21,778 bases of DNA from Gemmatimonadota bacterium (GCA_031372565.1 JANMLN010000086.1:1-21778); one strand, 5' to 3'. Positions 141 through 20,230 are shown, counted from the stretch's first letter. The notes: generated by a model from the sequence alone, not told the origin. Program-made: numbers and translations.

Positions 141-170
141 AAGCAGGTCCTTCGCTTTGCTCACGACGAC
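141..170. repeat. Single arm of REP-like repeat family A
   Basis: AAGCAGGTCCTTCGCTTTGCTCACGACGAC matches 17680-17709 (AAGCAGATCCTTCGCTTCGCTCAGGATGAC) at 26/30 positions and contains the symporter stop codon (161-163). Confidence 0.75.
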
Positions 171-1537
171 GGGGGGGCGGTGGCGAGCGACACGCCAACC
201 CCGGTCGCACACACCAGCGGGATCCCGTACATCGCCCACGGCCACGTGTACCCGCCCGCCTCGCCCACCACCACGAAGCAGCCGATCCCCCACGTCACCC
301 CGACCACCACCGACGCCCACGCGCCTGCCGTCGTCGCCTTCGGCCAATGGAACCCCGCGAGCAGCGCGAAGCTCAACGCGGCCACCGGAATGTTCGCGAG
401 AATCAGCCGATTGAGAATGTCGTCGACCAGCAGGTTGGCGCCGAGCCAGCACAGCACCGCGAAGCCGCCGATCAGCAGCCGCTGGCCGCGTACCGACATC
501 CCGCCGCGCACCTGAAAATCCGCCGCGACCATCGCCGCCATCGCGCTCCACACCCCCGCGAGCGTCGTGAGTGCTGCGGTGAACAGCATCGCGATCCCGA
601 CTCCCTTGAGCCCGGTCGGCAGCCAGGCCGCGATCATCTGCGGCACGACCTGCTGCGGATCGTCCAGCACCACGCCGCTCGCCTTGAACCACGCGGCGCC
701 GAGCACCATCACGCCGTAGAGGAGGAAGATGAGCACGGCGCTCACGCCCACTGCGGCAAATGCCGTCTTCTCGTCGCGCGCCGCAAAGATCTTCTGCCCG
801 TACCAGGGCGCCGCGATGTACGTGAAGCAGGTGAGCACGATCAGCGTCGTCACGAAGCGGAACGGCAGCGCCGGGTGTGTCCACTGCGCCCATGGCGCAA
901 ACACGCGCTGGTCGGCCGGGTACGCGGCGTCCATGGCGCCCGGCCCGAGCTTGAGATAACCGATGATGCCCAAGACCGGCAACAGCACCAGCGTGAGCGC
1001 GAATCCGACCAGATCGCTTCGCACCACGCTCTCCAATCCGCCCGAGATCACCACCAGCACCACCACCGCGCTCAACACCCCCGACAACACCCACGCATCC
1101 ACCCCGGGCACGATCGGAGCAAAGATCAGTGCCAACGACTTCACGTAGGTCGCGCTGAACCCCGTCATCGCCACCAGCAGCAGCGCCGACGCGAACCGCC
1201 CCAGCGCGGGCGAGTAGCGCGTACTGAAGAGTTCCGCCACGCTCAACCGGTTGAACCGCTTCCACGGCTTGGCCACCGTGACGGTGTAGAACAGCAGCCC
1301 CACCAGGAAGACGAACGGAAGCGCCAGCGCCATGGGCCCCGCGCGATAGCCCGCGGCGCTGAAGGCCAGCAGCGTGCTCGTGTTGAACTCGGTCATCACG
1401 AGCGTTGCCACGAGCGGAACGAACCCCACCGACCGGTCCGCCACGAGGTAGCTCTCCGCACTCACCGTCCCGCGGCGTCCCACCAGCACCAGCAGCGCAA
1501 TGATCGCCGCGAAACCCACCAGGTCGAGTCCGTTCAT
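161..1537 (-). CDS. Sodium:solute symporter (SSS/SLC5) family transporter
   Basis: Polytopic hydrophobic protein of ~458 aa with SSS-like segments (ESYLVADRSVG, ATLVMTEFNTSTLLAFSAAGY, SVAELFSTRYS, GGLESVVRSD, QKIFAARDEK). ATG at 1537 is preceded by GGGAG and is preferred over the GTG at 1549. Confidence 0.88.
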   Translation of the reverse strand: MNGLDLVGFAAIIALLVLVGRRGTVSAESYLVADRSVGFVPLVATLVMTEFNTSTLLAFSAAGYRAGPMALALPFVFLVGLLFYTVTVAKPWKRFNRLSVAELFSTRYSPALGRFASALLLVAMTGFSATYVKSLALIFAPIVPGVDAWVLSGVLSAVVVLVVISGGLESVVRSDLVGFALTLVLLPVLGIIGYLKLGPGAMDAAYPADQRVFAPWAQWTHPALPFRFVTTLIVLTCFTYIAAPWYGQKIFAARDEKTAFAAVGVSAVLIFLLYGVMVLGAAWFKASGVVLDDPQQVVPQMIAAWLPTGLKGVGIAMLFTAALTTLAGVWSAMAAMVAADFQVRGGMSVRGQRLLIGGFAVLCWLGANLLVDDILNRLILANIPVAALSFALLAGFHWPKATTAGAWASVVVGVTWGIGCFVVVGEAGGYTWPWAMYGIPLVCATGVGVSLATAPPSS

Positions 1538-1614
1538 GCGCGCTCCCACATCCGCCGCATCGCCGCGCGCGTAAACTCCTGTAGCGTTCGTGTTCCGCCC
1601 CCTCCCGTGCTCCG

Positions 1615-1989
1615 ATGCCGACGACCCGCCGCCGCTTCAGCCCCGAGTATGTGAGCATCGCTGCCCGCTGGCTGGGTCTGCTCAGCCACGAGACGCGCCT
1701 CCACCTGGTGCTGACCCTCGCGCAGGGCCCCAGCACGGTCACCGACCTCTGCGCCCACTTGGGGCTCGCGCAAAGCAACTGCAGCCACCACCTCGCGATC
1801 CTCCGCAATGCGGGCCTCGTCGTGGATGACCGCGACGGGCAGTTCGTGAACTATCGGCTCAACGTGGACGTCTGGCGCCGGATTGGCGATTCTTTCTTCG
1901 ACCAGCTGCTCGGCGGGGCCGATTCCGCAACGCTCCAGCACGTCCGCATCCAACGCCTCGCCAACGGCCGTACCACCCATCCGGCGTGA
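1615..1989 (+). CDS. ArsR/SmtB family transcriptional regulator
   Basis: 124 aa winged HTH: LSHETRLHLV...TVTDLCAHLGLAQSNCSHHLAILRNAGLV...RDGQFVNYRLN. Divergent from the symporter. Confidence 0.93.
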   Translation: MPTTRRRFSPEYVSIAARWLGLLSHETRLHLVLTLAQGPSTVTDLCAHLGLAQSNCSHHLAILRNAGLVVDDRDGQFVNYRLNVDVWRRIGDSFFDQLLGGADSATLQHVRIQRLANGRTTHPA

Positions 1990-2106
1990 GGAACGCGGCC
2001 GGATGCATCCGACTAGCTATGGTTGGACGTATTGAAGCCTGAACATATGTCGATACGCATCGGTGGCCATGCCGGCATCGGCCCCTTCACCCCTGCAGAA
2101 TCTTCC

Positions 2107-5046
2107 ATGTCGCTGCTTTGTGAGTTTCGACTGGCCTCGGCCCTGCTCGCCCTGGGTGCCGCGCTGATCGCGCCAGCCACTGTTGACGCCCAGCGACCGG
2201 AGGCCATCGTCTCCGGCATCGTGCGCTCGCAGGGCGGACGCCCGATCGGCGGCGCACGCGTCGAGACCGCCGATGGCGCCAACAAGATCGACGCCGATGC
2301 CGGCGGCCGCTTCCGGTTGAGTGTCCCAACGGGTGACGCGATCATCAGCGTCACGGCGATCGGGTTCCGGCCCGTGCGCATTCCACTCGTGGCGCTCGCG
2401 GCTGGCGAAGTGCGCCCCGTTGGCGTCACGCTCGCGCCGCTGTACACGCTGACGGCCACCACGATCGTCGCCACGCCCGAGCGTCCGCTCCTCAACACGG
2501 AGAACGCGGCCACCGGTGGCTCGATCGAGAAAGCCGAGCTCCTCGCGCTGCCCACGGATGCGCGCGACCCGATCGCGCTGCTGTTCAACGTGCCCGGCAT
2601 CACGCAGTCATCGGGCTTCTTCGGCGATGCACCGCAACTGTCGTTCAACGCGCAGAACGCGCTGTACACGACCTACCTGCTCGACGGCCTCGACAACACG
2701 GAAGGATTCCTCGGGGGACCGCGCGTGGAGTTTCCGCTCGCGGGACTCGATCGGATCGACGCCTACGTGAACAGCTACTCGAGCGAGTTCGGCCGCAGCC
2801 CGAGCGGCATCGTCAACCAGCTGTCGCGCGGTGGCAGCAACGCGCGCCACGGCGAACTCTTCCTGTATGGCCGCCCCGGGCGATCGTCGGGCGTCGATGC
2901 CGACAACAAGATCCCGTTCGGTGCGGTACCGGCCGCCATCCAGCGCAAACAGGACGGCTTCAAGCGCTTCCAGCTCGGCGGTGCGCTCTCTGGCGCCCTG
3001 CGTCCCGATCGCACCTTCTACTCCGTGGCCGCCGAGTACACGGACGAGACCGAGGACCGGGTCGGATCGACTGCACTGGCGAGCTTTCTTGGCACGGAGC
3101 GCCGCCAGAAGGTGAAGCTGTACGGCCGACTCGATCAGGCGTGGAACGCCAACCAGTTCACGACCGTGCGCGCGGCCTTCTCGATCACCGATCGGGCAGG
3201 GACCGGGTCCGGGATCGTGACGCCGGAAGCCGACATCGTCACGCGTCGCATCGGCGGATTGTACGCGCTCACGCACCGCTCCTCGCTCGATGGCGGGAAC
3301 GCGAGCAACACGATCTCCGCACAGGTCGGCACCTACCACTGGTACTTCCCGCCGGCCAACTCCGACTTCACCAAGCCGCAAGTCACGATCGTCGGCCCGG
3401 GCCCGTCGTTCACGCCGCAGGCGGTGGTCGGGTCGTCCAACTTCGTGTTCGATGAAAAGGAAGTGCAGATCCAGCTGCGCGACGTGTTCGAAACGGCGCT
3501 CAACGACGAGCACACGCTCCGGCTGGGGGGCGACATCCTGCGTTCGAACTTCGAGCTGTTCGCGGCCGGAACCAACCCGCTCGGCAGCTACGTCGTGGTC
3601 AACACCGGCAACATCAGTCCGCCAAGCGGACGCCCGGCGCGCTACTCCGACATTCCCGCTGGCGTACAGGTGCAGTCGTACACGGTGGATGCGCGACCGC
3701 AGCAGGTGAACCTCTCGCAGACCGTCTTCGGCGCGTTCATCGAGGACCGCTGGAAGGTGAGCCCGAGCTTCACGCTCATCTCGGGGCTCCGCTGGGATTA
3801 CGACGACATCACGAGCCGAGGGCAAAGCTCGCCGGATCTCACGGCGTTTCAGCCGCGCGTGTCGTTCAACTGGTATGCGACGCCGCGTTCGGTGCTGCGT
3901 GGTGGCATCGGCATGTACGCCGGCAAGCTTCCATACGCCATCTACTCCGACGCGCAACAACTGGGGGTCAATGGCAACGCGACGGTCTCGTTCAGCGGTG
4001 CGAGTGCACCGGTGTTCGGCGCGGGCCAGACCGCAGCAGCCCTCGCCGCCGCCACTGGCGCGCTACCGCCGCGCGAGGTCTTCTCGTTCTTCCCGCTCGG
4101 CCTGCGCATGCCGATGACCTACCAGACCACGGTGGGCTACCAGGTGCAGGTGGGCGATGACTGGGGCTACAGCGCCGATCTCGTGCTGTCGCGCACGGCC
4201 AACCTGCCGCGCCTGCTCGACCTCAACCCCGTCAACAAGCAGCTGGGCCCCGGCGACACGGCCAACCAGGTGTGTGCCTCGGCGACGTCGTGCCCCGGCG
4301 ACGCGTTCCGTCCGTCGAATCCGAACACGACCGGGTATCGACGCCTCTCGGCCGCGCAGTCGGGCGGCGAGGCGATGTACGCGGGCCTCTACCTGAGCGC
4401 ACGCAAGCGACTCGCGCGATCGCTCGCCGTCGATGCCAACTACGTGCTGTCGCGCGCCATGAACGATGCCGAAGACATCAACTTCTCGGCCACGCAGGGC
4501 AACTGCTTCGGTTCGAACTATCGCGATGCCGTGACCAACGCACCGTGCTCGAGCCGCGAGTGGGGCAACGCGAACAACGACCGCACGCACCGGGCCACGG
4601 TGCGCGCCATCTGGACACCGTGGGCCGCCTGGCGCTTCAGCATCGTGTCCGACGTGCAGAGTGGACAGCCGTTCACGCGTGTGGCCGGTGCCACCGTCGG
4701 CGGCGGACAATCGCGCTACGACCTGCTCGGCGCCGGCGCGATCCGCGGCAACGGCTTCATCGGCAACAGTGATCGCTACTACGGCGTGGAGCGCAACAGC
4801 GAGACGCTCCCGATGTACGAGAACACGAACATCAGCGCGACCTACCTGCTGGCGTTCGGCACCCAGGTGATCGAGTTGCGCGCCGACCTCTTCAACCTCA
4901 CGAACTTCACGGCGTGGGGGAACTTCGCGAACGGCGTGGGCGGTGGCGGGAGTCGCGTGCAGACCGGCCGACCCGGCGATCCGATCTACAACTTCAATCC
5001 CGGTCCGCCGAGGCAGCTGCAACTCTCGGCCCGCTGGGGCTTCTAG
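2107..5046 (+). CDS. TonB-dependent outer-membrane receptor with N-terminal carboxypeptidase-regulatory-like domain (Oar-like)
   Basis: Signal peptide (LASALLALGAALIAPATVDA), N-terminal SGIVRSQGGRPIGGARV domain, plug region (LLFNVPGI, YLLDGLDN, YSSEFGRSPSGIVN), beta-barrel strands (FIEDRWK, SGLRWDYD, FQPRVSF) and C-terminal PRQLQLSARWGF ending in Phe. Start chosen at ATG 2107. Confidence 0.92.
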   Translation: MSLLCEFRLASALLALGAALIAPATVDAQRPEAIVSGIVRSQGGRPIGGARVETADGANKIDADAGGRFRLSVPTGDAIISVTAIGFRPVRIPLVALAAGEVRPVGVTLAPLYTLTATTIVATPERPLLNTENAATGGSIEKAELLALPTDARDPIALLFNVPGITQSSGFFGDAPQLSFNAQNALYTTYLLDGLDNTEGFLGGPRVEFPLAGLDRIDAYVNSYSSEFGRSPSGIVNQLSRGGSNARHGELFLYGRPGRSSGVDADNKIPFGAVPAAIQRKQDGFKRFQLGGALSGALRPDRTFYSVAAEYTDETEDRVGSTALASFLGTERRQKVKLYGRLDQAWNANQFTTVRAAFSITDRAGTGSGIVTPEADIVTRRIGGLYALTHRSSLDGGNASNTISAQVGTYHWYFPPANSDFTKPQVTIVGPGPSFTPQAVVGSSNFVFDEKEVQIQLRDVFETALNDEHTLRLGGDILRSNFELFAAGTNPLGSYVVVNTGNISPPSGRPARYSDIPAGVQVQSYTVDARPQQVNLSQTVFGAFIEDRWKVSPSFTLISGLRWDYDDITSRGQSSPDLTAFQPRVSFNWYATPRSVLRGGIGMYAGKLPYAIYSDAQQLGVNGNATVSFSGASAPVFGAGQTAAALAAATGALPPREVFSFFPLGLRMPMTYQTTVGYQVQVGDDWGYSADLVLSRTANLPRLLDLNPVNKQLGPGDTANQVCASATSCPGDAFRPSNPNTTGYRRLSAAQSGGEAMYAGLYLSARKRLARSLAVDANYVLSRAMNDAEDINFSATQGNCFGSNYRDAVTNAPCSSREWGNANNDRTHRATVRAIWTPWAAWRFSIVSDVQSGQPFTRVAGATVGGGQSRYDLLGAGAIRGNGFIGNSDRYYGVERNSETLPMYENTNISATYLLAFGTQVIELRADLFNLTNFTAWGNFANGVGGGGSRVQTGRPGDPIYNFNPGPPRQLQLSARWGF

Positions 5047-5103
5047 CGCGCCCGGTGGGACCCGCGCGCTCCGGCGGGCCCCATCACGCGTAGCTTCCCC
5101 CGC

Positions 5104-5712
5104 ATGTTCGACGAACAGTTCCGTCGCGTCTTCCCCGCCGTTGCGGCCGCTCCCGTGCGCGCGCTCGCGCGTGCGAGGATCACGCCGAATCAGGTCAGCG
5201 TGGCCGCATGCACGCTGGGGTGCATCGCGGCCGTGTCGCTCGGCGCCGGTTACCCCGTGAGCGCGCTTACGCTGTGGCTCGCAGGACGCGTGCTCGACGG
5301 CATGGACGGCCTGCTCGCGCGCGAGACGGGTGCCGGTACCGCGTTTGGTGGCTACCTGGACATCACGCTGGACATGGTGGCGTACGGCGCCATGGTGATC
5401 GGCTTCGCGGTGCAGCGCCCGGAGCATGCGATCGCGTGGATGTGCATCCTGTTCGGCTACGTGCTCGTGACGACCAGTACGTTGGCGCTCTCATCGCTGC
5501 TCGAGGCCCAGCATGCGCGCGAGGGGCTCACCAACCGATCGATCGCCTTCACGCCGGGCTTCGCCGAGGCCGGAGAGACGAGCATCGTGTACGCGCTGCT
5601 CGTGCTCGTGCCGGTCGCGATACCGATGATCGCGTGGGCATGGGTGGCGCTGTTGGCTGCGACAGTCGTGCAGCGCACGCGCCTCGCGTGGCGCGTGTTG
5701 GACGGTCGGTAG
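5104..5712 (+). CDS. CDP-alcohol phosphatidyltransferase family protein (YnjF-like)
   Basis: ITPNQVS and the signature DGMDGLLARETGAGTAFGGYLDITLD (D-G-x2-A-R-x8-G-x3-D-x3-D); several TM helices; later GFAEAGET segment. Confidence 0.9.
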   Translation: MFDEQFRRVFPAVAAAPVRALARARITPNQVSVAACTLGCIAAVSLGAGYPVSALTLWLAGRVLDGMDGLLARETGAGTAFGGYLDITLDMVAYGAMVIGFAVQRPEHAIAWMCILFGYVLVTTSTLALSSLLEAQHAREGLTNRSIAFTPGFAEAGETSIVYALLVLVPVAIPMIAWAWVALLAATVVQRTRLAWRVLDGR

Positions 5713-5751
5713 TGCGCGCGCAGTGTTCAGGCGACGAGCCGCGAGATCCGA

Positions 5752-6492
5752 TCAGCGCGGCACGTAGTCGTGCAGGAGCGGTCCTGGTCCGGGCGCGTCG
5801 AGCATCGACAGCAGGGCGCGCAGCACGTGGCGCTGCCCGTCCGCGTCACCCGGTGCACCGAGCGCTCGCCCGAACGGGAACGGCACCGCCAGCATGCGCG
5901 GCGCCCGCAGCGTCACCGCCACGCTGCGCACGAGCGCGATGCACGCCGTGGCGATCCCCAATCGTTCGACTTCCGCTGCGAGCAGTCCGACCGACTGCGT
6001 ACAGGTGGGTCAGACGGGCACGAAGAGCGCGGCGTCCACCTCATCCGCCAGCAACGCATCCACGATCCCGGGCGCTGTCTCCTTGAGGAAGCGGCCGGGC
6101 GCCACCATGCTGCCGTTGAAGCTCACGGCTCGCGGCGCCACCTCGCCGATCGTCCCGTCGGCTGCCAGCTCGTAGAGGCGGTCGAGCGGCAAGGCGAGAT
6201 TCTTGTCCTTGAGCAGATCGGCACGGTCGAACGCGTCGCTCGTCTGTCCGATCGCGAGCGCGGTCACGGGGGTATCGCTCGGCAGGTAGCGCGCGCTGAT
6301 CACTTCGCCTTCGCGCGTGCCGAAGTCGGCATCAACGCCCGGGCGATAGAGCCCCGCACTCGTCACCAACGCCACGCGCGCCCGTCCGAGCGGCACGCGG
6401 AGCGTCGCCCACGGCGTGTCGGCGATCGTACGCCACCGGTACGCGCGAATCGAGATCCGGTACTTGAGGGGTAGCTCATCCCAGCTGGCCAT
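5752..6492 (-). CDS. PrdB/GrdB-like (glycine/sarcosine/betaine/D-proline reductase component B family) selenoprotein, 246 aa, Sec at codon 161
   Basis: The N-part (RVALVTSAGL, DKNLALPLDRLYELAADGTIG, SFNG, VDAALFVPV) and C-part (PTCTQSVGLLAAEVERLGIAT...PRMLAVPFPFGRALG) are in one frame, separated only by TGA at 6012-6010, giving V-P-V-U-P-T-C. A SECIS-like hairpin follows immediately. Confidence 0.88.
5982..5998 (-). promoter_or_regulatory. Putative bacterial SECIS element
   Basis: mRNA reads UGA-CCCACCUGUAC-GCAGUC-GGUCG-GACUGC: a perfect 6-bp stem with a 5-nt loop starting with GG, beginning after an 11-nt spacer. Confidence 0.78.
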
Positions 6493-6624
6493 GCGGGAAA
6501 GATGGCGACGACACCGCATGCGCACGACCGGCGTGATGAATCCGGACGTGACCCGTGCGGCGTACCGTGTCGAACGAGCGCGTCCGCCACGACAGGCGTT
6601 GCATCTAGCGGCGTCGATATTCCC

Positions 6625-6652
6625 TTGCCGACCCGATTCCTCCCCGTAGGAT
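6625..6652 (+). promoter_or_regulatory. Possible sigma70-type promoter for the radical SAM gene
   Basis: TTGCCG (6625-6630), 16 nt spacer, TAGGAT (6647-6652), upstream of ATG 6693. Confidence 0.35.
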
Positions 6653-6692
6653 GGGGGTTGGTGTTTCTCGCCCCCTCCCAACGAGTACGCGC

Positions 6693-8090
6693 ATGGCCAC
6701 TCGACCCGTCGTGAACAGTGCGTGGGCGGCCTTCACCGAGCCCGTGCTCGCCGAGTCGCGAGCGCTGTTGGCCCAGAACTGGAGCCAGCTCCCGGCGGCG
6801 CTGCGAACGCCGCACCAGATGCTGGGCCGGCAGGGCAACGGATGCGGAGCGACGATCGGTGCCATGCCGCGCTGTGACTTCGCCTGTCGCGGCTGCTATC
6901 TCGGCGAGGAGGCCAACAAGATTCCCGCCGAACCGCTCGAGGCGATCAAGGCGCAGATGCGTGCGTTGCGCCCGGTGCTCGGCCCGGCCGGCAACCTGCA
7001 ACTCACCGACGGCGAGGTCACGCTGCGGCCCGTCGAGGACGTGATCGAACTGCTGCAGTACGCGCGCTCGCTGGACCTCATTCCCATGCTCATGACGCAT
7101 GGCGATTCGTTCCGTCGCCGGCCAGGACTGCTCGAGCGGCTGGTCCGCGAGGGCGGCTTGCGTGAAGTGAGCATTCACGTCGACACGACGCAGCGCGGCC
7201 GCACGGGCCCATACCGCAATGCCAGGACCGAGGCGGACCTCAATCCGCTGCGCGCCGAGTTCGGCGAGATGCTGCGCGCTGCACGCGCCGCCACGGGGCT
7301 GAATGTGCGCGCGGCCACGACGATGACCATCACCCCGGAGAACCTGGGCGGCGTGGCCGATGTCGTGCGCTGGTTGATGCAGAACCCCGATGCCTTCTTC
7401 ATGATCTCGTTCCAGCCCATCGCGCAGGTGGGGCGTACCGAGGATGGCCTGGGCGACAGCGTGGACGTCGAAGCACTCTGGCGCGAGATCGCGCGTGGCT
7501 GCCATGGATCGGCCGATGCAGCGACCGTCGCACGACTCCTGGGCGGGCAGAAGTGGCTCGGGCACCCCGCCTGCAACCGGTTCGTGCACGGCATCGTGGC
7601 GAAGCGCGCCACCGCGGCCACCTTCCACCCCGTACGCCAGCAGGGCGACGCGACCGACGCCCGCATCGTGGACGGCTTCCTTGCACGGTTCGGGGGGATC
7701 TCGTTTCGTCGCGATGGGCGAGTGACCGCCATCGCACGTGCGCTCGGACTGGCTGCGCGCGCGCCGGGCTTCTTCGCGCGCAATGTGCCCGCGTTCGCCT
7801 GGCACTGGCTGCGCCGCCTTGGTGATGGCAACCCGTGGCGCGCAGCACGCGAACTCGCGTCGGGGGCGCTGCACGCGCACGGCTTCCTGTTCGTGAGCCA
7901 TCACTTCATGAGCAAGGCACAGCTCGAGACGCCCCTTGGCCAGGAGCGCGTGCAGCACTGCGTGTTCACCGTGCCGGTGGACGGTCAGCTGGTGAGCATG
8001 TGTGAAGTCAACGCGCTCGGCATCCGCGAGGAGTACTACGCGCAGATCGCTACCGCTGCGCGACCTTCCGTGCTTTCGCCTGACTGTTGA
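6693..8090 (+). CDS. Radical SAM enzyme of unknown function
   Basis: CxxxCxxC motif CDFACRGC; LQLTDGEVTLR (GGEP-equivalent), MLMTHG, SIHVDTTQ, ISFQPIAQVGR; further Cys in HPAC and C-terminal HCVF...SMCEVN. Confidence 0.92.
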   Translation: MATRPVVNSAWAAFTEPVLAESRALLAQNWSQLPAALRTPHQMLGRQGNGCGATIGAMPRCDFACRGCYLGEEANKIPAEPLEAIKAQMRALRPVLGPAGNLQLTDGEVTLRPVEDVIELLQYARSLDLIPMLMTHGDSFRRRPGLLERLVREGGLREVSIHVDTTQRGRTGPYRNARTEADLNPLRAEFGEMLRAARAATGLNVRAATTMTITPENLGGVADVVRWLMQNPDAFFMISFQPIAQVGRTEDGLGDSVDVEALWREIARGCHGSADAATVARLLGGQKWLGHPACNRFVHGIVAKRATAATFHPVRQQGDATDARIVDGFLARFGGISFRRDGRVTAIARALGLAARAPGFFARNVPAFAWHWLRRLGDGNPWRAARELASGALHAHGFLFVSHHFMSKAQLETPLGQERVQHCVFTVPVDGQLVSMCEVNALGIREEYYAQIATAARPSVLSPDC

Positions 8091-8847
8091 GCGTCCAGTC
8101 GTAGTCGGTCTGGACCGTCTTGAAGTCACCCGACAAGAGCAGCTGCTTCTCCGGCCCGTCGGGGAACCACTTGGCCATGAACTTGGCCGACTCCTTCACG
8201 CTGCCGCCGAAGTCTTCCTTGTAGTAGCCGAAGATCATCGAGTGGTAGAGCGTCCGGTTGGCCACATCCACGCGGTTCTTCGTCGGTGACTTGACGATGA
8301 ACTGCGTGCCCTGATCATCGAGCTGCGCGCCGAGCTTGGCCGCGGTGTAGGCCTCACTGCGAAGCGGCGGGCACCCCATCGCGGCGCACACCAGCGCCAG
8401 GTGGATGCGCGGCTCCTTGTACGTCGGGCGGATGATCTTGTGTTCGATGTCGTCGAGCGTGTAGTCCTTGCCGCCAACCTTGGCGAGCGGCTCGGCCCAC
8501 GGCCCCTTGAGCTTGAGGAAGAGCGTCTTGTTGATGTTGCGGATGCTCTCGGTCTCGTTGTGCGACACGATCAGTTCGATCGTGTAGGCATTGTAGGCGT
8601 TGATCCAGAAGGCCAGCTGCTCATCGCGCGGCATCGCGGCGGGATCGGTCGCCGCGAGCGTCCTGAGGTACCCCTTGAACTCGGGGGCCGCCTTGAACCC
8701 GTCGTAGTTGACCATGCCGTTGACGACGTGCTTGCGCAGCAGGCCGTCGAACGACGAATGATCGAACCCCTGCGCGAGCGCCGATCCGGACACCGTGAGG
8801 GTCATGGCAAGGGCCGCCAACGGGCGGCGCAGCAAGGCGGATGGCAT
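8050..8847 (-). CDS. DUF547 domain exported protein
   Basis: Signal peptide ending in ALA; motifs LAFWINAYNAYTI, TLDDIEHKIIR, EPRIHLALVCAAMGCPPLRSEAY, YDWTLN. AAGGAG RBS before ATG 8847. Confidence 0.9.
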   Translation of the reverse strand: MPSALLRRPLAALAMTLTVSGSALAQGFDHSSFDGLLRKHVVNGMVNYDGFKAAPEFKGYLRTLAATDPAAMPRDEQLAFWINAYNAYTIELIVSHNETESIRNINKTLFLKLKGPWAEPLAKVGGKDYTLDDIEHKIIRPTYKEPRIHLALVCAAMGCPPLRSEAYTAAKLGAQLDDQGTQFIVKSPTKNRVDVANRTLYHSMIFGYYKEDFGGSVKESAKFMAKWFPDGPEKQLLLSGDFKTVQTDYDWTLNSQAKARKVAQR

Positions 8848-8896
8848 GGTCGAAGCTCCTTCAAGATGTGACTGGAACGGGCCGCCGTCGGCACGT

Positions 8897-10435
8897 TCAC
8901 GTGAACAGGCGAAACCAGGTCCGGAAGAGCGACGCCACGGTCGGCGTGAGCCGCGTGCGGTTGTACGAATCGGCGGCCTTGCGCAGCGCCTCACTGACGG
9001 TGGGATACGGATGGATCGTGCGACCAATGGCACCGAGGCCCATGCCGTTGGTCATGCAGAGCGTGATCTCGCCGATCAGGTCGCCCGCGTGCTCGGCCAC
9101 GATCGTCGCACCGACTATACGATCGGATCCCTGTGCCAGATGTACGCGCACGAATCCCTCCTCCTGACCGTCGAGCCGCGCACGGTCGACATCATGGAAC
9201 GGGACCGTGATCGTGTGCACCGCGATCCCGGCCTTCTGCGCGCCCTCGGCGGTCAGCCCCACGTGCGACAGCTCCGGGCTCGTGTACGTCGCCCACGGAA
9301 TCACCAGCTTGCTCCCCTTGGCGCGACCGAAGAACAGCGCGTTCTGCACCACCGCGCGCGCCATGAAGTCCGCCGCGTGCGTGAACTGGTAGCGACTCGC
9401 GCAGTCGCCGATCGCGAACACGGCCGGATTGCTCGTCTGGAACCGGTCGTCCACCGTGACGCCAGCTTTGTCGTACGCGACTCCCGCCTGCTCGAGCCCC
9501 ATCCCCTCGACGTTCGGCGCGCGCCCGATCGCGACCAGCAGCTGGTCGCCCTCGAGCACTTCTTCGCGACCCTCGCGCGTGAGGACCACGCGGAACACCC
9601 CGCCTTCGTGCGTCACCGAGTTGATCGCCGCACTGAACCGGAACTGCACGCCGCTGCGACGCATGCCGGCCTGCACCAGCGCCGCGGCTTCGGCATCCTC
9701 GCGCGGCAACAGCTGCGCGGAGCGATCGACGAGGGTGACGTCGCTGCCGAACCGCGCGAAGCTCTGCGCCATCTCGCACCCGATCGGACCGCCACCGATG
9801 ACGAGCAGCCGCTCCGGCAGCGTGGTCAGATTGAACAGGGTCTCGTTGGTCAGGTACGGCGTGCCGGCGAGACCGGGAATGGGTGGGGCCGCCGCGCGTG
9901 CGCCCGTGGCGATCACCGCGCGACGGAAGCGCAGCGTTTGCCCGCCCACCGTGATCGCATCGCGCGCCGTGAAGGCGCCGTCGCCGAGAAAGACATCCAC
10001 TCCGAGCGTCGCGTAGCGCGGCGCGCCATCGACGACCGAGATGTCCGCGCGAAGCCGCCGCATCCGCTCCATGACGGCGGCAAAGTCCCCCGCACCGCTT
10101 GCAGCCGGGCCCGCGAAATCAGGTGCGGCACGATGCGCCGCTTCCCACGCGCGCGACGGCGCGATGATCCCCTTGCTCGGCACACACCCGACGTTGAGGC
10201 AATCACCGCCCATCATGTGCCGCTCGATGAGCGCCACCTTCGCGCCCAGTCCAGCCGCCGCCGATGCCGTGACCAGCCCGGCCGTGCCCGCGCCGATCAC
10301 GACCACGTGATAGCGCGCCTTGGCCCGCGGATTGGTCCAGCCGGCCGGATGTACGTTCGCCACGAGGCGCCGGTTGTGCGCATCGTCGGGGAGCATCACG
10401 AGGCCAGCATCGTGGCGGGGGGTGGTCATGGGCAT
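8897..10435 (-). CDS. Mercuric-reductase-like / LpdA-like FAD-dependent pyridine nucleotide-disulfide oxidoreductase (not a true MerA)
   Basis: VVIGAGTAG FAD site, redox disulfide GGDCLNVGCVPSK, IGGGPIGCE NAD(P)H site, AIGD, C-terminal HPYPT. No N-terminal metal-binding domain and no C-terminal Cys-Cys. Start is 10435 or 10429. Confidence 0.9.
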   Translation of the reverse strand: MPMTTPRHDAGLVMLPDDAHNRRLVANVHPAGWTNPRAKARYHVVVIGAGTAGLVTASAAAGLGAKVALIERHMMGGDCLNVGCVPSKGIIAPSRAWEAAHRAAPDFAGPAASGAGDFAAVMERMRRLRADISVVDGAPRYATLGVDVFLGDGAFTARDAITVGGQTLRFRRAVIATGARAAAPPIPGLAGTPYLTNETLFNLTTLPERLLVIGGGPIGCEMAQSFARFGSDVTLVDRSAQLLPREDAEAAALVQAGMRRSGVQFRFSAAINSVTHEGGVFRVVLTREGREEVLEGDQLLVAIGRAPNVEGMGLEQAGVAYDKAGVTVDDRFQTSNPAVFAIGDCASRYQFTHAADFMARAVVQNALFFGRAKGSKLVIPWATYTSPELSHVGLTAEGAQKAGIAVHTITVPFHDVDRARLDGQEEGFVRVHLAQGSDRIVGATIVAEHAGDLIGEITLCMTNGMGLGAIGRTIHPYPTVSEALRKAADSYNRTRLTPTVASLFRTWFRLFT

Positions 10436-10447
10436 GGGCAAAGGATG

Positions 10448-11194
10448 CTATGCAGCGGGCGCCGGCGCGCCCTCGGTGGCCTCGCGCAGCGCGCGGCGCG
10501 CCGTTCGGGTGACCAACGCGGTCACGAGGATCGTCGCGGCCAAGCCCAAGCCAAGCACCGCATAGTAGCCGACGTCCTTCGGCGCCTGCGTGCCGCTCGC
10601 GAGGGCCGCCACGTCGCCCGCGAGGCGCCCGTAGTACACAAAGAGCACGGTGCCCGGCAGCATGCCCACCGCCGCCAGCACGTAGTCGGCGAGCTTCACC
10701 TGTGTGAGGCCGAGCGCGTAGTTGAGCAGCGAGAACGGGAAGGCCGGTGAGAGGCGCAGCAGCGTCACGATCCGTCGGCCGTCGGCGCCGATGGCACGGT
10801 CGATCGCGGCAAAGCGCGCGTTGCCCGCCAGTCGTTGCTCCACCCAGCCGCGCGCCGCGTAGCGGGCGATGAGAAACGCCAGGGTTGACCCGATGGTCGC
10901 GCCCACGAAGACGAGCGCGACCCCCTTGACCAGCCCGAAGATCGCCCCCGCGGCCAGCGTGAGCAGTGACCCCGGGATGAACGCCACGCAGGCGATGATG
11001 TACCCCAGCACGAAGACCACGGCCCCCAACGCGCCCAGCCCGTTGATGTACGCGGCAAACTGTGGCACCACGCCGGCCGCCTGTCGTCCCGCAAACACGA
11101 CCCCCACAAGGACGACGGCGATGACGGCTATGCGCCCCCAACGCCGAAGCGGCGAGGGAGGGGTGGCATCGGTGGTGGCGACGGTCGGCGTCAT
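10448..11194 (-). CDS. TVP38/TMEM64 (DedA/VTT domain) membrane protein
   Basis: PGSLLTLAAGAIFG, GSTLAFLIARY, LLRLSPAFPFSLLNYALGLT, GMLPGT motifs; 12 nt upstream of the oxidoreductase, so likely co-transcribed. Confidence 0.92.
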   Translation of the reverse strand: MTPTVATTDATPPSPLRRWGRIAVIAVVLVGVVFAGRQAAGVVPQFAAYINGLGALGAVVFVLGYIIACVAFIPGSLLTLAAGAIFGLVKGVALVFVGATIGSTLAFLIARYAARGWVEQRLAGNARFAAIDRAIGADGRRIVTLLRLSPAFPFSLLNYALGLTQVKLADYVLAAVGMLPGTVLFVYYGRLAGDVAALASGTQAPKDVGYYAVLGLGLAATILVTALVTRTARRALREATEGAPAPAA

Positions 11195-11604
11195 GCGATG
11201 GGTACGAGAAGCCACGCGCGGAGGGACGAAGTGAATACGCCGCCCCCGGCGCGGCGGATTGCGGTCGCGCGGAATGCCGAAGTGATAGCGTCGTACCCCC
11301 GATTCGGTTCACAGCCAACGCACGAGATCGCGCAGCAGCGGCCCGGGCGCGGGCGCCGACCCCAAGGCGTCATCGAATACCTGACGCTCCAGCGGTTGAA
11401 CAGATTTGCTGGCGGGACCTAACGCTTTTTGCTATATATGCTTGGTTCCAAATACTACACAACGCCCGTCCGGTGGTTGGACCCGATGCCGGGTCACACT
11501 GGGTCATGGTTGTCTCAATCGCGTACGACCCGACGGTACGTCCGCACTCCCCGTGCGCTTGGCGTCGCCGCTTGTCGTCGCACCTCCACCAGGCCCTGCT
11601 GCCG

Positions 11605-12985: not shown

Positions 12986-14056
12986 CTAGAAGTCTTCCCA
13001 GGCGAAGCCCGACGCGATGCGCTCGAGCTTCTTCGTCTTCAGGTCCATGCGCAACACGGTCACGGCCCCCGCGCGCTCGGTCGTCGCGCGCGTGGCCAGT
13101 TCATCGATGCCGTCGCCATCCACGTCATAGGCGCCGAGCAGTTCGTGGGCGCGAAAGCGCAGGTCGCTCACCTTGAGCGGCGTCACCTTGCCCTTGTCGT
13201 CCACGATCACCACGCGCTCGACAAACCACTCGCCTCGATCGTCGCGGAGCATCGCCGCCATGGCGAGACGGCCGAGCGCGCCGAAGCAGCCGAGCACGCG
13301 CGTGCCGCGGGTCATCACCTTCCTCGAGAAGCCGGTGTACGCGGGTCGCGGCGTGTTTCTCACGACCAGATCAAGGGAATCCTTGAGCCACTTCTCGCGC
13401 AGCTTGAGCTCGCTGCTGATCGAGTCGCGCACGCAGGGCTCGACGTCGCTCGCCGGAGCAGCGGTCGCAGCCGCACTCGTCGCGGGCGAGGTCGCGGACA
13501 CGGCAGGCGCCGGAGCAACGGCTGCCCCTTCACGATCCGCGACCGCGGTCAGCTTGTCATCCTTCCTGGCCATCGAGTCGATCGTCGCATTCAGTTCGAG
13601 CGTGGCCACCACGCGCGATGACCAGACGTCGTACCCCGTGATGCGCGTGCGCACGGAGCCGAACTTCCCGTTCAGCACAACTGCCGTACCGATGGGCATG
13701 GGCGGGTGCGAGGCGATCACCTGCCGATACGCACGCGCGCGCGCGCTGTCCTTGCGCACGTCGAGGTCCACCCGGCCGACATCGAGCAGCAGCCGCTTCC
13801 CGCGCGCGGCCGCAACGAAGCGCGACTGACCGGCAGGGGGCCACGTCGTCCGCGCCAGAATCGAGTCGCCCACAACCTCCAGCTTGGTGCCGAGGCGCAG
13901 GCCGTCGGGGCCGAGTGGAACCGGCGCTGGTGCGGGCTTGCTCGACGGCGTCCGCTGGGCCGCGGGCTTGGCGACCGGCTTCGTGGCGCCCTGCGCCGGG
14001 AGCTCGCGCACGACGCTCGCGAGACACCACACGACCAGGAGACGGTGCATCAGCAT
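12986..14056 (-). CDS. Hypothetical secreted protein with an Ala/Pro linker and a C-terminal DVDGDGIDE (FG-GAP/VCBS-like) Ca-binding-type motif
   Basis: C-terminal half of the 725-aa track ORF; signal-like MLMHRLLVVWCLASVVRELPAQ; fills the gap between convergent and divergent neighbours. Start is 14056 or 14050. Confidence 0.72.
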   Translation of the reverse strand: MLMHRLLVVWCLASVVRELPAQGATKPVAKPAAQRTPSSKPAPAPVPLGPDGLRLGTKLEVVGDSILARTTWPPAGQSRFVAAARGKRLLLDVGRVDLDVRKDSARARAYRQVIASHPPMPIGTAVVLNGKFGSVRTRITGYDVWSSRVVATLELNATIDSMARKDDKLTAVADREGAAVAPAPAVSATSPATSAAATAAPASDVEPCVRDSISSELKLREKWLKDSLDLVVRNTPRPAYTGFSRKVMTRGTRVLGCFGALGRLAMAAMLRDDRGEWFVERVVIVDDKGKVTPLKVSDLRFRAHELLGAYDVDGDGIDELATRATTERAGAVTVLRMDLKTKKLERIASGFAWEDF

Positions 14057-14182
14057 GGCTTCAATGCTACTCGCCGAGTGGGCGGGCGTCATCCGCGCTG
14101 GCGGCGCCCGGTGCCATCGGGCGTGCCCCCCGTGCGTATCGGGCTGCCCCGCGCTATCGTATGCTTCCTCGCTTCCTTGCCC

Positions 14183-15136
14183 ATGACCTTTCGCTACGTC
14201 CGCCCCACCAACGCGCCCGACGCTGGCCGCGCCCTCGCTGAACCCGCCGCGGTTCCGCTGGGGGGTGGCACGGACCTGCTTGTCACCATGCGCGAAGGGC
14301 TGGCACAGCCCCACGCGCTGGTCGACCTGCGGCGCGTGCAGGGGAGCGACGCCATCGCGCGCAGCGACGGCAACGCGCTCGTCATCGGTGGCAGCGCTCG
14401 CTTGGCCGACATCGCCGCGCACCCCGACGTGCGCGCGCACTTCGGCGCACTCGCGCAGGCGTGCGAGAGCGTCGGAACAACGCAGCTGCGCGTCATGGGC
14501 ACGCTCGGCGGCAACCTCTGCCAGCGGCCGCGCTGCTGGTACTTCCGGCGCGGCGTCTCCTGCTTCAAGTCGGGCGGCTCGAGCTGTCCAGCCGTACTCG
14601 GCGAGAACCAGTATCTGGGCATCCTGGGCGGCGGTCCCTGTCACGCGCCGCATCCCAGCGATCCCGCCGTCGCACTCACCGCGCTCGAGGCCACGGTCAT
14701 CGTGGCGGGCGCAGCGGGAGAACGGCGTGTGCTCATGTCCGACTTCTACGACGCGACGGATGTGACGCGCGAGACGGTGCTCGCACACGGCGAGTACGTG
14801 CAGGCCGTGGAACTCCCCGCGGGCAGCGCGAGCGCGGTGCAGCGGTACGACAAGCTGATGCAGCGCGCCAGCTGGGACTTCGCCCTGGTCTCGCTCGCGG
14901 CGGTGCGGCGCACGGACGGCGACGTGCGGCTGGTGCTGGGCGGCGTTGCCCCGCGTCCATGGCGCGTGACGTCCAGCATCGAAGAGGACATTGCGAGCGG
15001 TGGCCTCGACGACGAAACGATCGCGGTGCTCGCCGAGCGTGCGTTGTACGATGCTGCGCCGCTGTCGCAGAACGGGTACAAGGTGACGCAGGCGGAAGCC
15101 CTGCTGCGTCGCGCCATCAAGGCGATTGCCCAGTGA
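14183..15136 (+). CDS. Xanthine dehydrogenase family FAD-binding subunit (PaoB/YagS-like, with Cys-rich Fe-S insert)
   Basis: FRYVRP, LGGGTDLL, QLRVMGTLGGNLCQRPRCWYFR...CFKSGGSSC...GPCHAPHPSD, RASWDFALVS, LGGVAPRPWR, PLSQNGYKV. Confidence 0.93.
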   Translation: MTFRYVRPTNAPDAGRALAEPAAVPLGGGTDLLVTMREGLAQPHALVDLRRVQGSDAIARSDGNALVIGGSARLADIAAHPDVRAHFGALAQACESVGTTQLRVMGTLGGNLCQRPRCWYFRRGVSCFKSGGSSCPAVLGENQYLGILGGGPCHAPHPSDPAVALTALEATVIVAGAAGERRVLMSDFYDATDVTRETVLAHGEYVQAVELPAGSASAVQRYDKLMQRASWDFALVSLAAVRRTDGDVRLVLGGVAPRPWRVTSSIEEDIASGGLDDETIAVLAERALYDAAPLSQNGYKVTQAEALLRRAIKAIAQ

Positions 15137-15726
15137 GCGCCACACGCCAGCATCCGTTCGCATGCGCGATCCTCGCGGCGGGCGCCGGCACGCGTTTCGG
15201 CGAGCCCAAGGTGAATGCGCCGTGGTCCGACGGGGTGCGCTTCCTCGATCGTGTCGTGCAACTCGCGCAGTGGACCGGCGCCGACCCGATCATCGCGGTC
15301 GTGCCGCCCGAGACCATGGTGCCGGAGGGAGTTCGCGTCGTGATCAACGCCAACGCGCGCGGCGAACAGATCGCGTCGCTCCGCCTCGCGCTCGCCCAGC
15401 TCACCAACAGTCCGGCAACCGGCGTGCTGGTGTGGCCGGTCGACCATCCCGCAGTGGAGCTCGCGAGCGCACTGGCCGTGCTCGACGCCGCTCGACGGTC
15501 CGATCAACCGATCGTCGTGCCGGTGCATGAGGGCCGTCGCGGGCATCCGGCCTGGTTTGATCGATCGGTCTGGCGCGAGCTGGTGACGGTGCAGGACGGT
15601 GGCGCGCGTGCCGTCGTACAGGCGGACCCGTCGCGCGTGCTCGAGGTGAGCGTGCCGCACGCCGGCGTGAATCGCTACATCGACCCGCGCGACGACTTGG
15701 CGCGTGCGCAGGCGGGGGTGGCGTGA
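15133..15726 (+). CDS. MocA/YgfJ-like nucleotidyltransferase (putative Mo-cofactor cytidylyltransferase)
   Basis: ILAAGAGTRFGEPK, WPVDHP, GRRGHPAWF, GGARAVV; GTG start overlaps the upstream stop (GTGA). Confidence 0.85.
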   Translation: MSATRQHPFACAILAAGAGTRFGEPKVNAPWSDGVRFLDRVVQLAQWTGADPIIAVVPPETMVPEGVRVVINANARGEQIASLRLALAQLTNSPATGVLVWPVDHPAVELASALAVLDAARRSDQPIVVPVHEGRRGHPAWFDRSVWRELVTVQDGGARAVVQADPSRVLEVSVPHAGVNRYIDPRDDLARAQAGVA

Positions 15727-16971: not shown

Positions 16972-17733
16972 ATGAGCGCCCCCGTCACCCTGTCCGGCTA
17001 CCGCGGTATTCGCGGCGAGATCCTGATTGCGCTCAAGAAGGCGCAGCCGCTGACGGCGCGCGAACTGGGTGAGCGGTTTGACCTGACCGCGAACGCGCTG
17101 CGCCGGCATCTCGACCAGCTCGAAGCGGACGGCGTGGTGCGGCACGAGGCGCAGGTGCGCGGCGTCGGGGCGCCGGTGTTCGCGTACTCGCTTGCGGCCG
17201 AGGGCGAGTCGCTCTTTCCGTCGGCGTATGTGGCGGCGCTGGTGGAGGCGCTGGAGACCGTGCGCCAGCACGCGGGCACTGCCGGCGTGGTGGAGCTGTT
17301 CAAGCGTCGTTGGGATGCGCTGGCCGACACGGCGCGCCCGGAGCTGGAGCGCCTGGCGCTCCCGGAGCGGACGAAGCTGCTGGCGAGCTTGTTGTCGGAG
17401 CAGGGTTACATGGCGGAATCGGTCGCGCATAACGCCAATAGTGCGACACTAACAGAACACAATTGCGCCATTCGCGCAGTTGCGGAGCGGTTCCCCGAGA
17501 TCTGTGAAGCGGAAACCGACTTTCTCGAGCTCATGCTCGGCGGTCGGGTTGAACGACAGGCGCACATCCTCAAGGGGTGCAATGCCTGCGAGTACACCAT
17601 CACCACCGATGTCGTTCTGAACGATCCCGTCGTGCTGTGCGAAGCGGAGGTCCTGCTTGTGCCGCTGCTCAAGCGCGACAAGCAGATCCTTCGCTTCGCT
17701 CAGGATGACACTTCTCCCATGAGCACCACATGA
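16972..17733 (+). CDS. sufR: SufR-like HTH transcriptional regulator of Fe-S assembly
   Basis: N-terminal HTH ([25 protein letters not shown]), C-terminal Cys pattern HNCAI...EICEAE...GCNACEY; ATGA overlap with sufB. Confidence 0.82.
17629..17709. repeat. REPIN-like inverted repeat (family A) inside the sufR 3' end
   Basis: Left arm 17629-17660 GTCGTGCTGTGCGAAGCGGAGGTCCTGCTTGT versus the reverse complement of the right arm 17678-17709 GTCATCCTGAGCGAAGCGAAGGATCTGCTTGT: 26/32 identical, 17-nt spacer. Confidence 0.82.
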
Positions 17734-19163: not shown

Positions 19164-19187
19164 GAGGGGAACGGAGGGCACGGAGCG

Positions 19188-19418
19188 TTGCGGGGGGCGG
19201 AGACACAGAACACACAGAGCTGCACAGAGGGTGCGCCGCGCGTGTGAGGTTCCGCCCCACCCCAACCCGCAGCTGTTCCCAGTAAGTGAAGGCCGCTCCT
19301 TTCTTTTGTTTTGTCCGATGCACGCCCTTGCCGTTGCCGTTGCCCTTGCCGTTGCCGTTCCGATAACCCCCAGCAGTTCTCTGTGAACCTCTACGTGCTC
19401 GGTGTCTCCCCCCCCGCA
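19188..19418. repeat. REPIN/MITE-like element (family B) with ~40-bp imperfect inverted arms and an internal hexamer array
   Basis: Left arm 19188-19229 TTGCGGGGGGCGGAGACACAGAACACACAGAGCTGCACAGAG; right arm 19379-19418 reverse complement TGCGGGGGGGGAGACACCGAGCACGTAGAGGTTCACAGAG; (GCCSTT)x6 at 19324-19359. Confidence 0.78.
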
Positions 19419-19459
19419 CCTCTCCAGTACTTCTCGCTCTTCATCTCCGTAACCACCCC

Positions 19460-20226
<767 letters not shown>

Positions 20227-20230
<4 letters not shown>

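Follow-up and report, generated by a model that had tools for sequence, protein, structure and literature searches.

A Gemmatimonadota gene cluster as a possible salvage form of the ArsS arsenosugar guild

Introduction

The ArsS (arsenosugar) guild is a named, largely putative set of genes in which the conversion of trivalent dimethylarsenic, DMAs(III), into 5'-deoxy-5'-dimethylarsinoyl-adenosine (DDMAA) by ArsS (PMC13598754) is the sole experimentally anchored chemistry. PMC11009773 lists AsSug328 and AsSug482 as compounds from which arsenosugar phospholipids could be formed or into which they could decay, and describes the arsenolipid steps after ArsS as unknown. A related arrangement is the uncharacterised ydjXYZ-ynjABCD-ynjE/ynjF region of Escherichia coli, whose ydjXYZ-ynjABCD genes are activated by FNR in anaerobiosis (PMC3688515). 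Here we analysed a stretch of 21,778 nucleotides, JANMLN010000086.1:1-21778 (the window), which is the entire contig C11 of a Gemmatimonadota assembly (GCA_031372565.1, here G000; 4.4 Mb, 68% GC, 95.9% complete). G000 carries a nine-gene locus encoding a sodium:solute symporter (SSS), an ArsR regulator, a TonB-dependent receptor (TBDR), a CDP-alcohol phosphotransferase, a PrdB-like selenoprotein, a radical SAM enzyme, a DUF547 protein, a flavin disulfide reductase and a TVP38/DedA protein. We found that ArsS and the importers related to this locus hardly ever occur in the same genome, which suggests that the imported solute may be a product of the ArsS pathway. No prior description of the system was found in a search of the openly accessible literature.

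Results

ArsS and the importers rarely share a genome

The import module of the locus consists of the following genes:

161..1537, minus strand: sodium:solute symporter, 458 aa (PF00474), belonging to a distinct subfamily and taking the place of the YnjBCD ABC importer
2107..5046, plus strand: TonB-dependent receptor, 979 aa (PF13620, plug and PF25183), whose family adjoins either SSS or YnjBCD
5104..5712, plus strand: YnjF-type CDP-alcohol phosphotransferase (PF01066) with an intact DGxxAR...GxxxDxxxD motif

From the 80 radical SAM loci described below we picked 50, mainly for longer contigs, and scored their genomes for ArsS, YnjB and SSS. ArsS was present in 8 of them, YnjB in 29 (28 over the cut-off, one split) and SSS in 6, with an importer (YnjB or SSS) in 35. 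YnjB and SSS were never found together (0/50, 3.5 expected) and ArsS accompanied an importer in one genome where 5.6 were expected (nominal p 4e-4), these statistics being inflated by the kinship of the metagenome-assembled genomes (MAGs) and by their incompleteness. ArsS or an importer was found in 42 of the 50 genomes, among them 35 of the 39 that belong to Gemmatimonadota. In a phylum sample of 251 genomes, which includes G012 (flagged unpublished), 35 carried ArsS or an importer (ArsS 21, YnjB 7, SSS 7) with zero overlaps, and the complementarity holds genome-wide, also where the modules lie apart from each other (G142). Because of this make-or-import pattern, the imported solute may well be the product of the ArsS pathway; the simplest reading suggested by these distributions is that the importers bring in the compound that ArsS would otherwise produce, and that this compound would be required by the radical SAM enzyme. 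The import-reduce-lipidate logic proposed in a first-pass annotation of the window is strengthened by the same pattern. We also considered a radical SAM enzyme acting alone on free DMA(III), an idea weakened by the presence of the importer and YnjF module in four of the five ArsS-less genomes tested.

The first-pass annotation had noted that ArsS, ArsM and the associated transferases are missing. In the 95.9%-complete G000 genome, the best ArsS match (TIGR04167) reached 47 bits against a cut-off of 300, TIGR04282 gave no match and TIGR04283 reached at best 78.5 against 182. ArsS and the transferases were thus not found over the cut-off anywhere in the assembly, but ArsM is missing from the locus only, since contig C158 encodes arsR and an ArsM-ArsN2 protein (351 against a cut-off of 263). 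ArsM co-occurrence is uninformative, with 183/251 genomes over the cut-off. The E. coli control genome had no ArsS over the cut-off.

SSS is a positional replacement of the YnjBCD importer, since TBDR and the CDP-alcohol transferase keep the same arrangement with either transporter. SSS adjoins both genes in all six other SSS genomes, the order SSS-TBDR-CDP transferase being found in L175-L180 and L200, while L131, L198 and L199 show TBDR-YnjB-permease-permease-ATPase-CDP transferase. A Bacteroidota plasmid carries DUF2064-TBDR-YnjB-permeases-ATPase, its TBDR sharing 30.5% identity over 956 aa. No CDP-alcohol transferase was observed next to YnjB in L016, L075, L077 or L191. The transferase aligns with E. 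coli YnjF at 31% identity across 176 aa (E 1e-18; the next paralog in G000 has E 4e-7), its plasmid matches include ynjF, and its top NCBIfam match is an archaetidylinositol-phosphate synthase, under the cut-off. YnjB (NF008633) was not found in a profile search of the G000 genome, no SSS of this type was found on plasmids, and PDB sequence searches with YnjB and with the SSS alignment gave no match.

Variants of the import neighbourhood were also observed. In the alphaproteobacterial loci L075 and L077, YnjB/YnjC stand beside an APH-family kinase, a SPASM radical SAM protein, TIGR04282 and TIGR04283, a set that, judged by its families, could be a route for a 5-substituted ribose by import, phosphorylation and activation. 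The ArsS-less guild loci L038, L052, L187 and L192 share a recurrent pair of a second radical SAM gene and a metallophosphoesterase gene, accompanied in L038 and L192 by a porin-like gene and an SSS of a different subfamily.

Separable modules surround a TVP38, reductase and DUF547 core

Three genes on the minus strand form the core:

8050..8847, minus strand: DUF547 protein (PF04784) carrying a signal-like segment at its N-terminus and a conserved CxxxxCP motif; the ends of this gene and of the radical SAM gene overlap by 41 bp
8897..10441, minus strand: PRK06370-type flavin disulfide reductase, MerA-like (NF004991/PRK06370, 733 bits against 620)
10448..11194, minus strand: TVP38/DedA (VTT) membrane protein (PF09335), 33-35% identical to E. 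coli YdjX and YdjZ

An ORF check and family searches placed nine intact genes within 161..11194, all of the families first assigned to them (PF00474, NF033788, PF01066, PF07355, PF04055, PF04784, NF004991 and PF09335). They form a contiguous cluster, as had been proposed, but not one operon or fixed system: the layout SSS(-); ArsR(+) TBDR(+) CDP transferase(+); PrdB(-); radical SAM(+); TVP38-reductase-DUF547(-) makes five strand blocks, and the full nine-gene set is confined to one genus. A single nine-gene operon was rejected on this strand layout and on the separability of the modules.

The neighbourhood and profile analysis that the first-pass annotation had recommended was run on the best 80 of 155 radical SAM loci, many of them on short contigs. 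By tblastn, DUF547 was found in 64 of these loci, TVP38 in 32, the MerA-like reductase in 29, TBDR in 13, the CDP-alcohol transferase in 8, SSS in 6, PrdB in 6 and ArsR in 2. Further recurrent neighbours were rhodanese (10), TIGR04283 (9), TIGR04282 (5), an 'N-terminal to SelD' oxidoreductase (5), TIGR04169 (4), ArsS (3), YnjB (3) and nucleoside hydrolase (3). This gene clustering far exceeds chance. Radical SAM and SSS each occur in 7 of the 251 genomes and G000 alone has both. Genomes were found with the SSS module but no radical SAM gene and with the reverse, and the SSS loci mostly keep the core (five of the six others retain a MerA-like gene with a TVP38 or TVP38-DUF547 gene, the sixth contig being 4 kb); the locus is therefore a union of separable modules, namely the core, the import module with SSS or YnjBCD, the radical SAM gene, and the optional Sec-PrdB and ArsR genes. 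Gene fusions occur within the guild, joining TIGR04283 to radical SAM (over the cut-off in P0243 and P0255; P0372 is so named), TVP38 to DUF547, and radical SAM to DUF547 (P0155).

DedA proteins have been described as lipid-carrier flippases. The CxxxxCP motif of DUF547 is kept in 63/65 homologs. The reductase is present in 42/251 genomes, including 15 of the 21 with ArsS, five of the seven with radical SAM and five of the seven with SSS. The name MerA-like is apt, as the protein has the CxxxxC redox centre and the Tyr of the HPYPT motif, but MerA itself it is not: it lacks the C-terminal Cys-Cys and the metal-binding N-domain, scores 390 bits on the MerA family TIGR02053 against a cut-off of 454, and scores in PRK06370.1-3.

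Elsewhere in the window, a short intergenic REP-like repeat lies at 101-165 (95 blastn matches across the genome), and positions 13706-15723 encode an FAD subunit of the xanthine-dehydrogenase type together with a MobA-like transferase. Rfam and tRNA searches across the window gave no match. Positions 16972-21537 hold what we take to be a SufR-like regulator followed by genes resembling sufB, sufC and sufD. At distant loci, neither of these two gene groups accompanies the cluster.

The radical SAM enzyme is predicted to have a lipid-synthase fold

6693..8090, plus strand: radical SAM enzyme of the Tes/GDGT-MAS fold, 465 aa (PF04055), with fold and sequence matches to Tes

The Tes enzyme combines a rubredoxin domain, an N-terminal cluster and a C-terminal cluster of three Cys and Met439 that parks the lipid radical (PMC9433317, PMC13459092). 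The sole match of the window enzyme in a PDB sequence search was GDGT-MAS/Tes, at about 20% identity. Its predicted model (pLDDT 94) matches 7TOL by Foldseek (E 1.6e-14; TM 0.56) and, as the best match, the lipid-binding GDGT-MAS by VIA over model residues 35-460 (Z 27.5, rmsd 3.7, 344 aligned residues; next fold Z 16.9). With Tes/GDGT-MAS (PDB 7TOL, 7TOM; NF045702) and TrsS (NF045646) it shares the two-domain fold, the CxxxCxxC motif and aligned C-terminal Cys residues. It differs from both in its low identity, in having His where Tes has Met439, and in falling far under both cut-offs (57.5 bits against 450 for NF045702); neither a rubredoxin nor N-terminal cluster motifs are present in it, a lone Cys, C51, lying upstream of CxxxCxxC. 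Across the family rows, C294 (55/55), C423 (54/55) and C437 (54/55) are conserved and are candidate ligands of a probable C-terminal auxiliary cluster. His403 (54/55) aligns to Met439 when a 20-residue numbering offset is inferred, and the partner of C294 in Tes was not seen. Helices 343-390 are basic and moderately amphipathic, with a hydrophobic moment no higher than that of the core helices. By membership the enzyme is thus not Tes, while the model and the alignment make it plausible that it works in a Tes-like manner on a lipid.

The family is broad, with 185 representatives at E <= 1e-30 and a large actinobacterial branch. Distant members (27%) occur with arsS, TIGR04282, TIGR04283 and MTA (methylthioadenosine) phosphorylase on plasmids of Burkholderia thailandensis and Cupriavidus KK10, the cluster of the latter adjoining an ars operon, and a Roseomonas homolog is accompanied by TIGR04282, DUF547 and VTT. 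Algal homologs in Mesostigma, Rhodosorus and Porphyridium (P0249, P0289, P0290; P0249 with a long N-terminal extension) fall within the actinobacteria-rich branch of a tree that was built by a quick method, had its outgroup join flagged for long branches and did not include Tes and TrsS sequences. A general role as algal arsenic-hydrocarbon synthase is unsupported by the known producers: no brown-algal, Dunaliella or Chlamydomonas name appears among the 120 of 2412 matches listed, most of which are unnamed. The string 'arsen' does not occur in a review from 2026 on radical SAM enzymes that modify lipids (PMC13459092). A second, more Tes/TrsS-like radical SAM protein of 476 aa that retains N-terminal Cys motifs (CPYDCGLC) is encoded beside a membrane-protein gene on contig C91 of G000 (L097:928-2355), and is also found in G004 and G015.

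A PrdB-like selenoprotein is an optional member of the guild

5752..6492, minus strand: PrdB/GrdB-like selenoprotein of 246 aa with a UxxC motif, its UGA lying at 6012-6010; an optional gene of the guild
5982..5998, minus strand: SECIS-like (selenocysteine insertion sequence) hairpin with a 6-bp stem and GGTCG loop, 11 nt past the UGA

The claim that the PrdB-like protein contains selenocysteine (Sec) is well supported. Its open reading frame has one in-frame TGA, giving U161 in UPTC, and G000 encodes selA, selB, selD and tRNA-Sec. At 61 PrdB-like loci (60 metagenomic and L186), the Sec position is TGA in 48, Cys in 5 and not covered in 8. Within the same interval past the UGA, 50/51 distinct UGA homologs have a hairpin with a stem of 5 bp or more and paired stem changes; the 5 Cys homologs lack this hairpin or have it displaced. 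The hairpin of our window, compared with synonymous controls, gave p=0.08 and is not significant alone. Sec decoding of this gene is strongly indicated by the comparison of homologs.

The protein is over the PF07355 gathering threshold and reaches 108.5 bits on TIGR04483 against a cut-off of 300. It shares with D-proline reductase PrdB and with GrdB the UxxC motif and similarity to PF07355 and TIGR04483 over most of its length; it differs from them in its sub-cut-off score, in the lack of prdA/grdE at the locus, and in having guild genes as partners. A search for the PrdA/GrdE partner PF09338 gave no match, control genomes being likewise blank, and an arsenobetaine- or proline-type reductase is unsupported. 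A selenium compound had been put forward as a possible substrate, but selenium looks like a catalytic residue of an optional gene rather than the substrate. Of the six closest matches in the 251-genome sample, those of G000, G275 and G083 lie inside guild loci, that of G119 lies 4.5 kb away, that of G154 has a weak TVP38-like neighbour and that of G112 has no guild neighbour. A metagenome scan with the single PrdB protein returned none and an alignment query returned the 60 loci; a PDB sequence search gave no match.

On contig C64 of G000, an AhpD-like gene that reads CPFU across an in-frame TGA (C64:27629-28228; L201:3630-4229) lies just downstream of a SigK-like sigma gene of the extracytoplasmic function (ECF) type. 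Homologs of this sigma gene stand beside radical SAM in 6/80 loci, and the AhpD-like gene is, from its sequence and setting, a probable second selenoprotein tied to the guild.

Four transcription units share an ECF-type promoter motif

1550..1573, plus strand: ECF-type promoter, ATCC-N16-CGTA, before arsR; present in 3/3 arsR orthologs
1615..1989, plus strand: ArsR/SmtB repressor, NF033788 over the cut-off; optional
2007..2031, plus strand: ECF-type promoter, ATCC-N17-CGTA, before the TBDR-CDP transferase unit
6540..6564, plus strand: ECF-type promoter, ATCC-N17-CGTA, before radical SAM; at 21/55 leading radical SAM genes against 0.4 in shuffles
6603-6618, plus strand: ArsR-type box ATCTA-N6-TCGAT; the element 6603..6652 adds a sigma70-like TTGCCG-N16-TAGGAT
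11236..11259, minus strand: ECF-type promoter, ATCC-N16-CGTA, before TVP38-reductase-DUF547; at 17/29 leading TVP38 genes

The ATCC-N16/17-CGTA motif was first revealed by aligning intergenic regions of orthologs from the genus. It occurs at five sites in the window (the four promoters and one site inside arsR) where the genome rate predicts about 0.6, and the cluster holds 4 of the 12 intergenic upstream sites of the genome. It precedes 75/273 leading guild genes against 1/770 other leading genes at the same loci, a count made mostly on loci not used in finding the motif, with duplicates L181 and L183-L185 dropped and a few others that may repeat a genome. The motif core is that of the RpoE-ChrR-type sigma regulon, which responds to singlet oxygen and tert-butyl hydroperoxide (tBOOH) and whose consensus, defined by chromatin immunoprecipitation (ChIP), is TGATCC-N16-CGTA in a broad oxidative-stress regulon (PMC5507510); it differs in that the first two bases are variable at the guild sites. 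Among 20 sigma-like matches in G000 none was assigned as the cognate sigma, and SigK-like and SigH-like/zf-HC2 ECFs adjoin some related loci. The motif also precedes genes at C152:354, C64:11323, C86:8104 and C186:11719 of G000, candidate members of the same regulon. Those at C152:354 and C64:11323 presumably encode DUF4331- and HupE/UreJ-type proteins.

An ArsR regulator is present, as first described, but it has no canonical arsenite site: it has two conserved Cys ten residues apart and no CVC or C-terminal CC site, unlike the ArsR of the genome's own arsRM unit on C158, which carries CVC and terminal CC. That unit (C158:5332-7082; L099:4333-6083) comprises arsR and the arsM-arsN2 fusion under a perfect ATCAA-N6-TTGAT box, identical to the described ArsR core (PMC4585019, PMC9137774). 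The related box ATC[TG]A-N6-TCGAT is kept in 5/5 genus orthologs of the locus, and 9 such sites occur in the genome, one of them the arsRM promoter. We propose that it adds control at the PrdB/radical SAM promoter, the binding ArsR being putative. The predicted ECF promoter is a more general regulatory link than the local ArsR.

Discussion

Starting from the observed genes, Sec signals, modularity, transporter swap, ArsS complementarity and shared promoter motif, and from a predicted fold, we infer what the substrate is, which reactions take place and what physiological role the locus has. The reading we favour, to which we give an even chance, is the salvage of an arsenoriboside into a redox-cycled arsenolipid, which would make the locus a salvage form of the ArsS guild. 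The TonB receptor and Na+ symporter would import a 5-deoxy-5-dimethylarsinoyl-riboside made by other organisms, and the YnjF-type transferase, given its enzyme family and the known lipid class, would join it to CDP-diacylglycerol to yield an arsenosugar phospholipid. TVP38 could bind or flip this lipid, while the PRK06370 flavoenzyme, using NAD(P)H, would bring the As(V)=O head down to the As(III) state, and DUF547, an exported protein with two Cys, might work on the outer side. The Tes-like radical SAM enzyme would add optional downstream radical C-H chemistry on the lipid-linked compound, Sec-PrdB may be an optional soluble oxide reductase, and a stress-type ECF promoter would be common to the four units.

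Several observations weigh against this reading. Arsenic enters by association alone, through ArsS, the ArsR-type box and the neighbours, and the local ArsR is without a canonical As(III) site. Neither ArsS nor an importer was found in 8/50 radical SAM genomes, and radical SAM is missing from most carriers in the phylum sample (SSS 6/7, YnjB 6/7, ArsS 17/21); the nine genes are therefore not one obligatory pathway. Guild neighbours were found at 9/60 metagenomic PrdB-like loci, many of which are short, and the ECF motif precedes 1/12 SSS and 0/44 PrdB genes. By analogy, the FNR activation of the E. coli homologs misfits a purely oxidative-stress role.

An alternative that we judge unlikely, but worth keeping in view, replaces arsenic by sulfur or selenium: an MTA-derived 5-methylthio- or methylsulfinyl-pentose would be imported, lipid-linked and redox-cycled like the mycobacterial methylthioxylose cap, with arsenic as a side substrate. 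The MTA phosphorylase, nucleoside hydrolase, rhodanese and 'N-terminal to SelD' oxidoreductase carried by the guild would suit it. The MtxS pathway also employs an MTA phosphorylase and a DUF2064 protein. Rv0539/MtxS does make a lipid-linked methylthiopentose donor (PMC12088412). On the other hand, the ArsR-type box and the ars operon neighbouring the Cupriavidus cluster point to arsenic. Importers of a sulfur compound should not exclude ArsS, because MTA is formed in most bacteria without ArsS; yet the two co-occur in a single one of the 50 genomes.

The redox genes could instead serve no lasting lipid, an arsine oxide or S-oxide acting as an anaerobic electron sink, or arsenic being stripped for use of the sugar with the radical SAM enzyme cleaving C-As. 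FNR activation in E. coli, the reductive cleavage catalysed by PrdB/GrdB relatives (PMC13188914) and the two reductases at the locus fit such a scheme, but the CDP-alcohol transferase adjoins the importer in the long-enough SSS loci and in L131, L198 and L199, and the radical SAM gene, with its lipid-synthase fold, also sits within ArsS biosynthetic operons; we find this rather improbable. Still less probable, in our estimate, is that the genes are merely co-regulated, as a stress-regulon or metal island, and have no substrate in common. The five strand blocks and separable modules agree with it, as do the mer operons that flank several related loci (L041, L116, L131) and the fit of the motif to the broad RpoE-ChrR-type consensus, while the fusions within the guild, the SSS/YnjBCD swap and the genome-wide complementarity of unlinked modules (G142) argue against it.

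If arsenoriboside salvage is correct, the make-or-import pattern provides YnjB, SSS and the TonB receptor with a candidate ligand and YnjF with a candidate reaction, and orphan proteins, E. coli relatives included, would acquire testable jobs. Arsenic sugars would then be a scavenged resource, beyond a mere detoxification product, and gut bacteria might convert dietary arsenosugars to arsenolipids. The locus also yields a new Tes-fold enzyme and a promoter motif usable in tracing the inducing signal. A wider and frankly speculative picture, which we consider a long shot, would have arsenosugars traded in communities: producers (ArsS) and scavengers (TBDR with YnjBCD/SSS and YnjF, including E. 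coli ydj-ynj) would make an arsenolipid with an As(III)/As(V) head group that serves the membrane as a reusable redox buffer, TVP38 and the flavoreductase restoring it under the control of a stress sigma factor, while the Tes-like radical SAM enzyme would form the terminal alkyl C-As bond of arsenic fatty acids or hydrocarbons, the homologs in Mesostigma, Rhodosorus and Porphyridium being its algal counterparts.

Comparison with known systems

The first-pass annotation tied the locus to the ArsS guild and also to ydjXYZ-ynjABCDEF of E. coli, a link that is supported by the shared TVP38, reductase and DUF547 genes, by the YnjF likeness and by the presence of the radical SAM gene in arsS operons. 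With the E. coli region the locus shares DedA/TVP38 proteins, an importer and a YnjF transferase; it has SSS and TBDR where E. coli has YnjBCD, the E. coli region is without radical SAM, DUF547, PRK06370 reductase and PrdB, and control is by FNR in E. coli whereas ECF and ArsR-type motifs are found at the locus. With the ArsM/ArsS neighbourhood (TIGR04167, TIGR04282, TIGR04283, TIGR04169) it has TVP38, the PRK06370 reductase and DUF547 in common, and its radical SAM and PrdB-like genes recur at ArsS or transferase loci; in place of ArsS and the transferases, G000 has an importer and a YnjF-type enzyme. The system would be a salvage variant, undescribed in the literature searched, of a named, largely putative gene guild.

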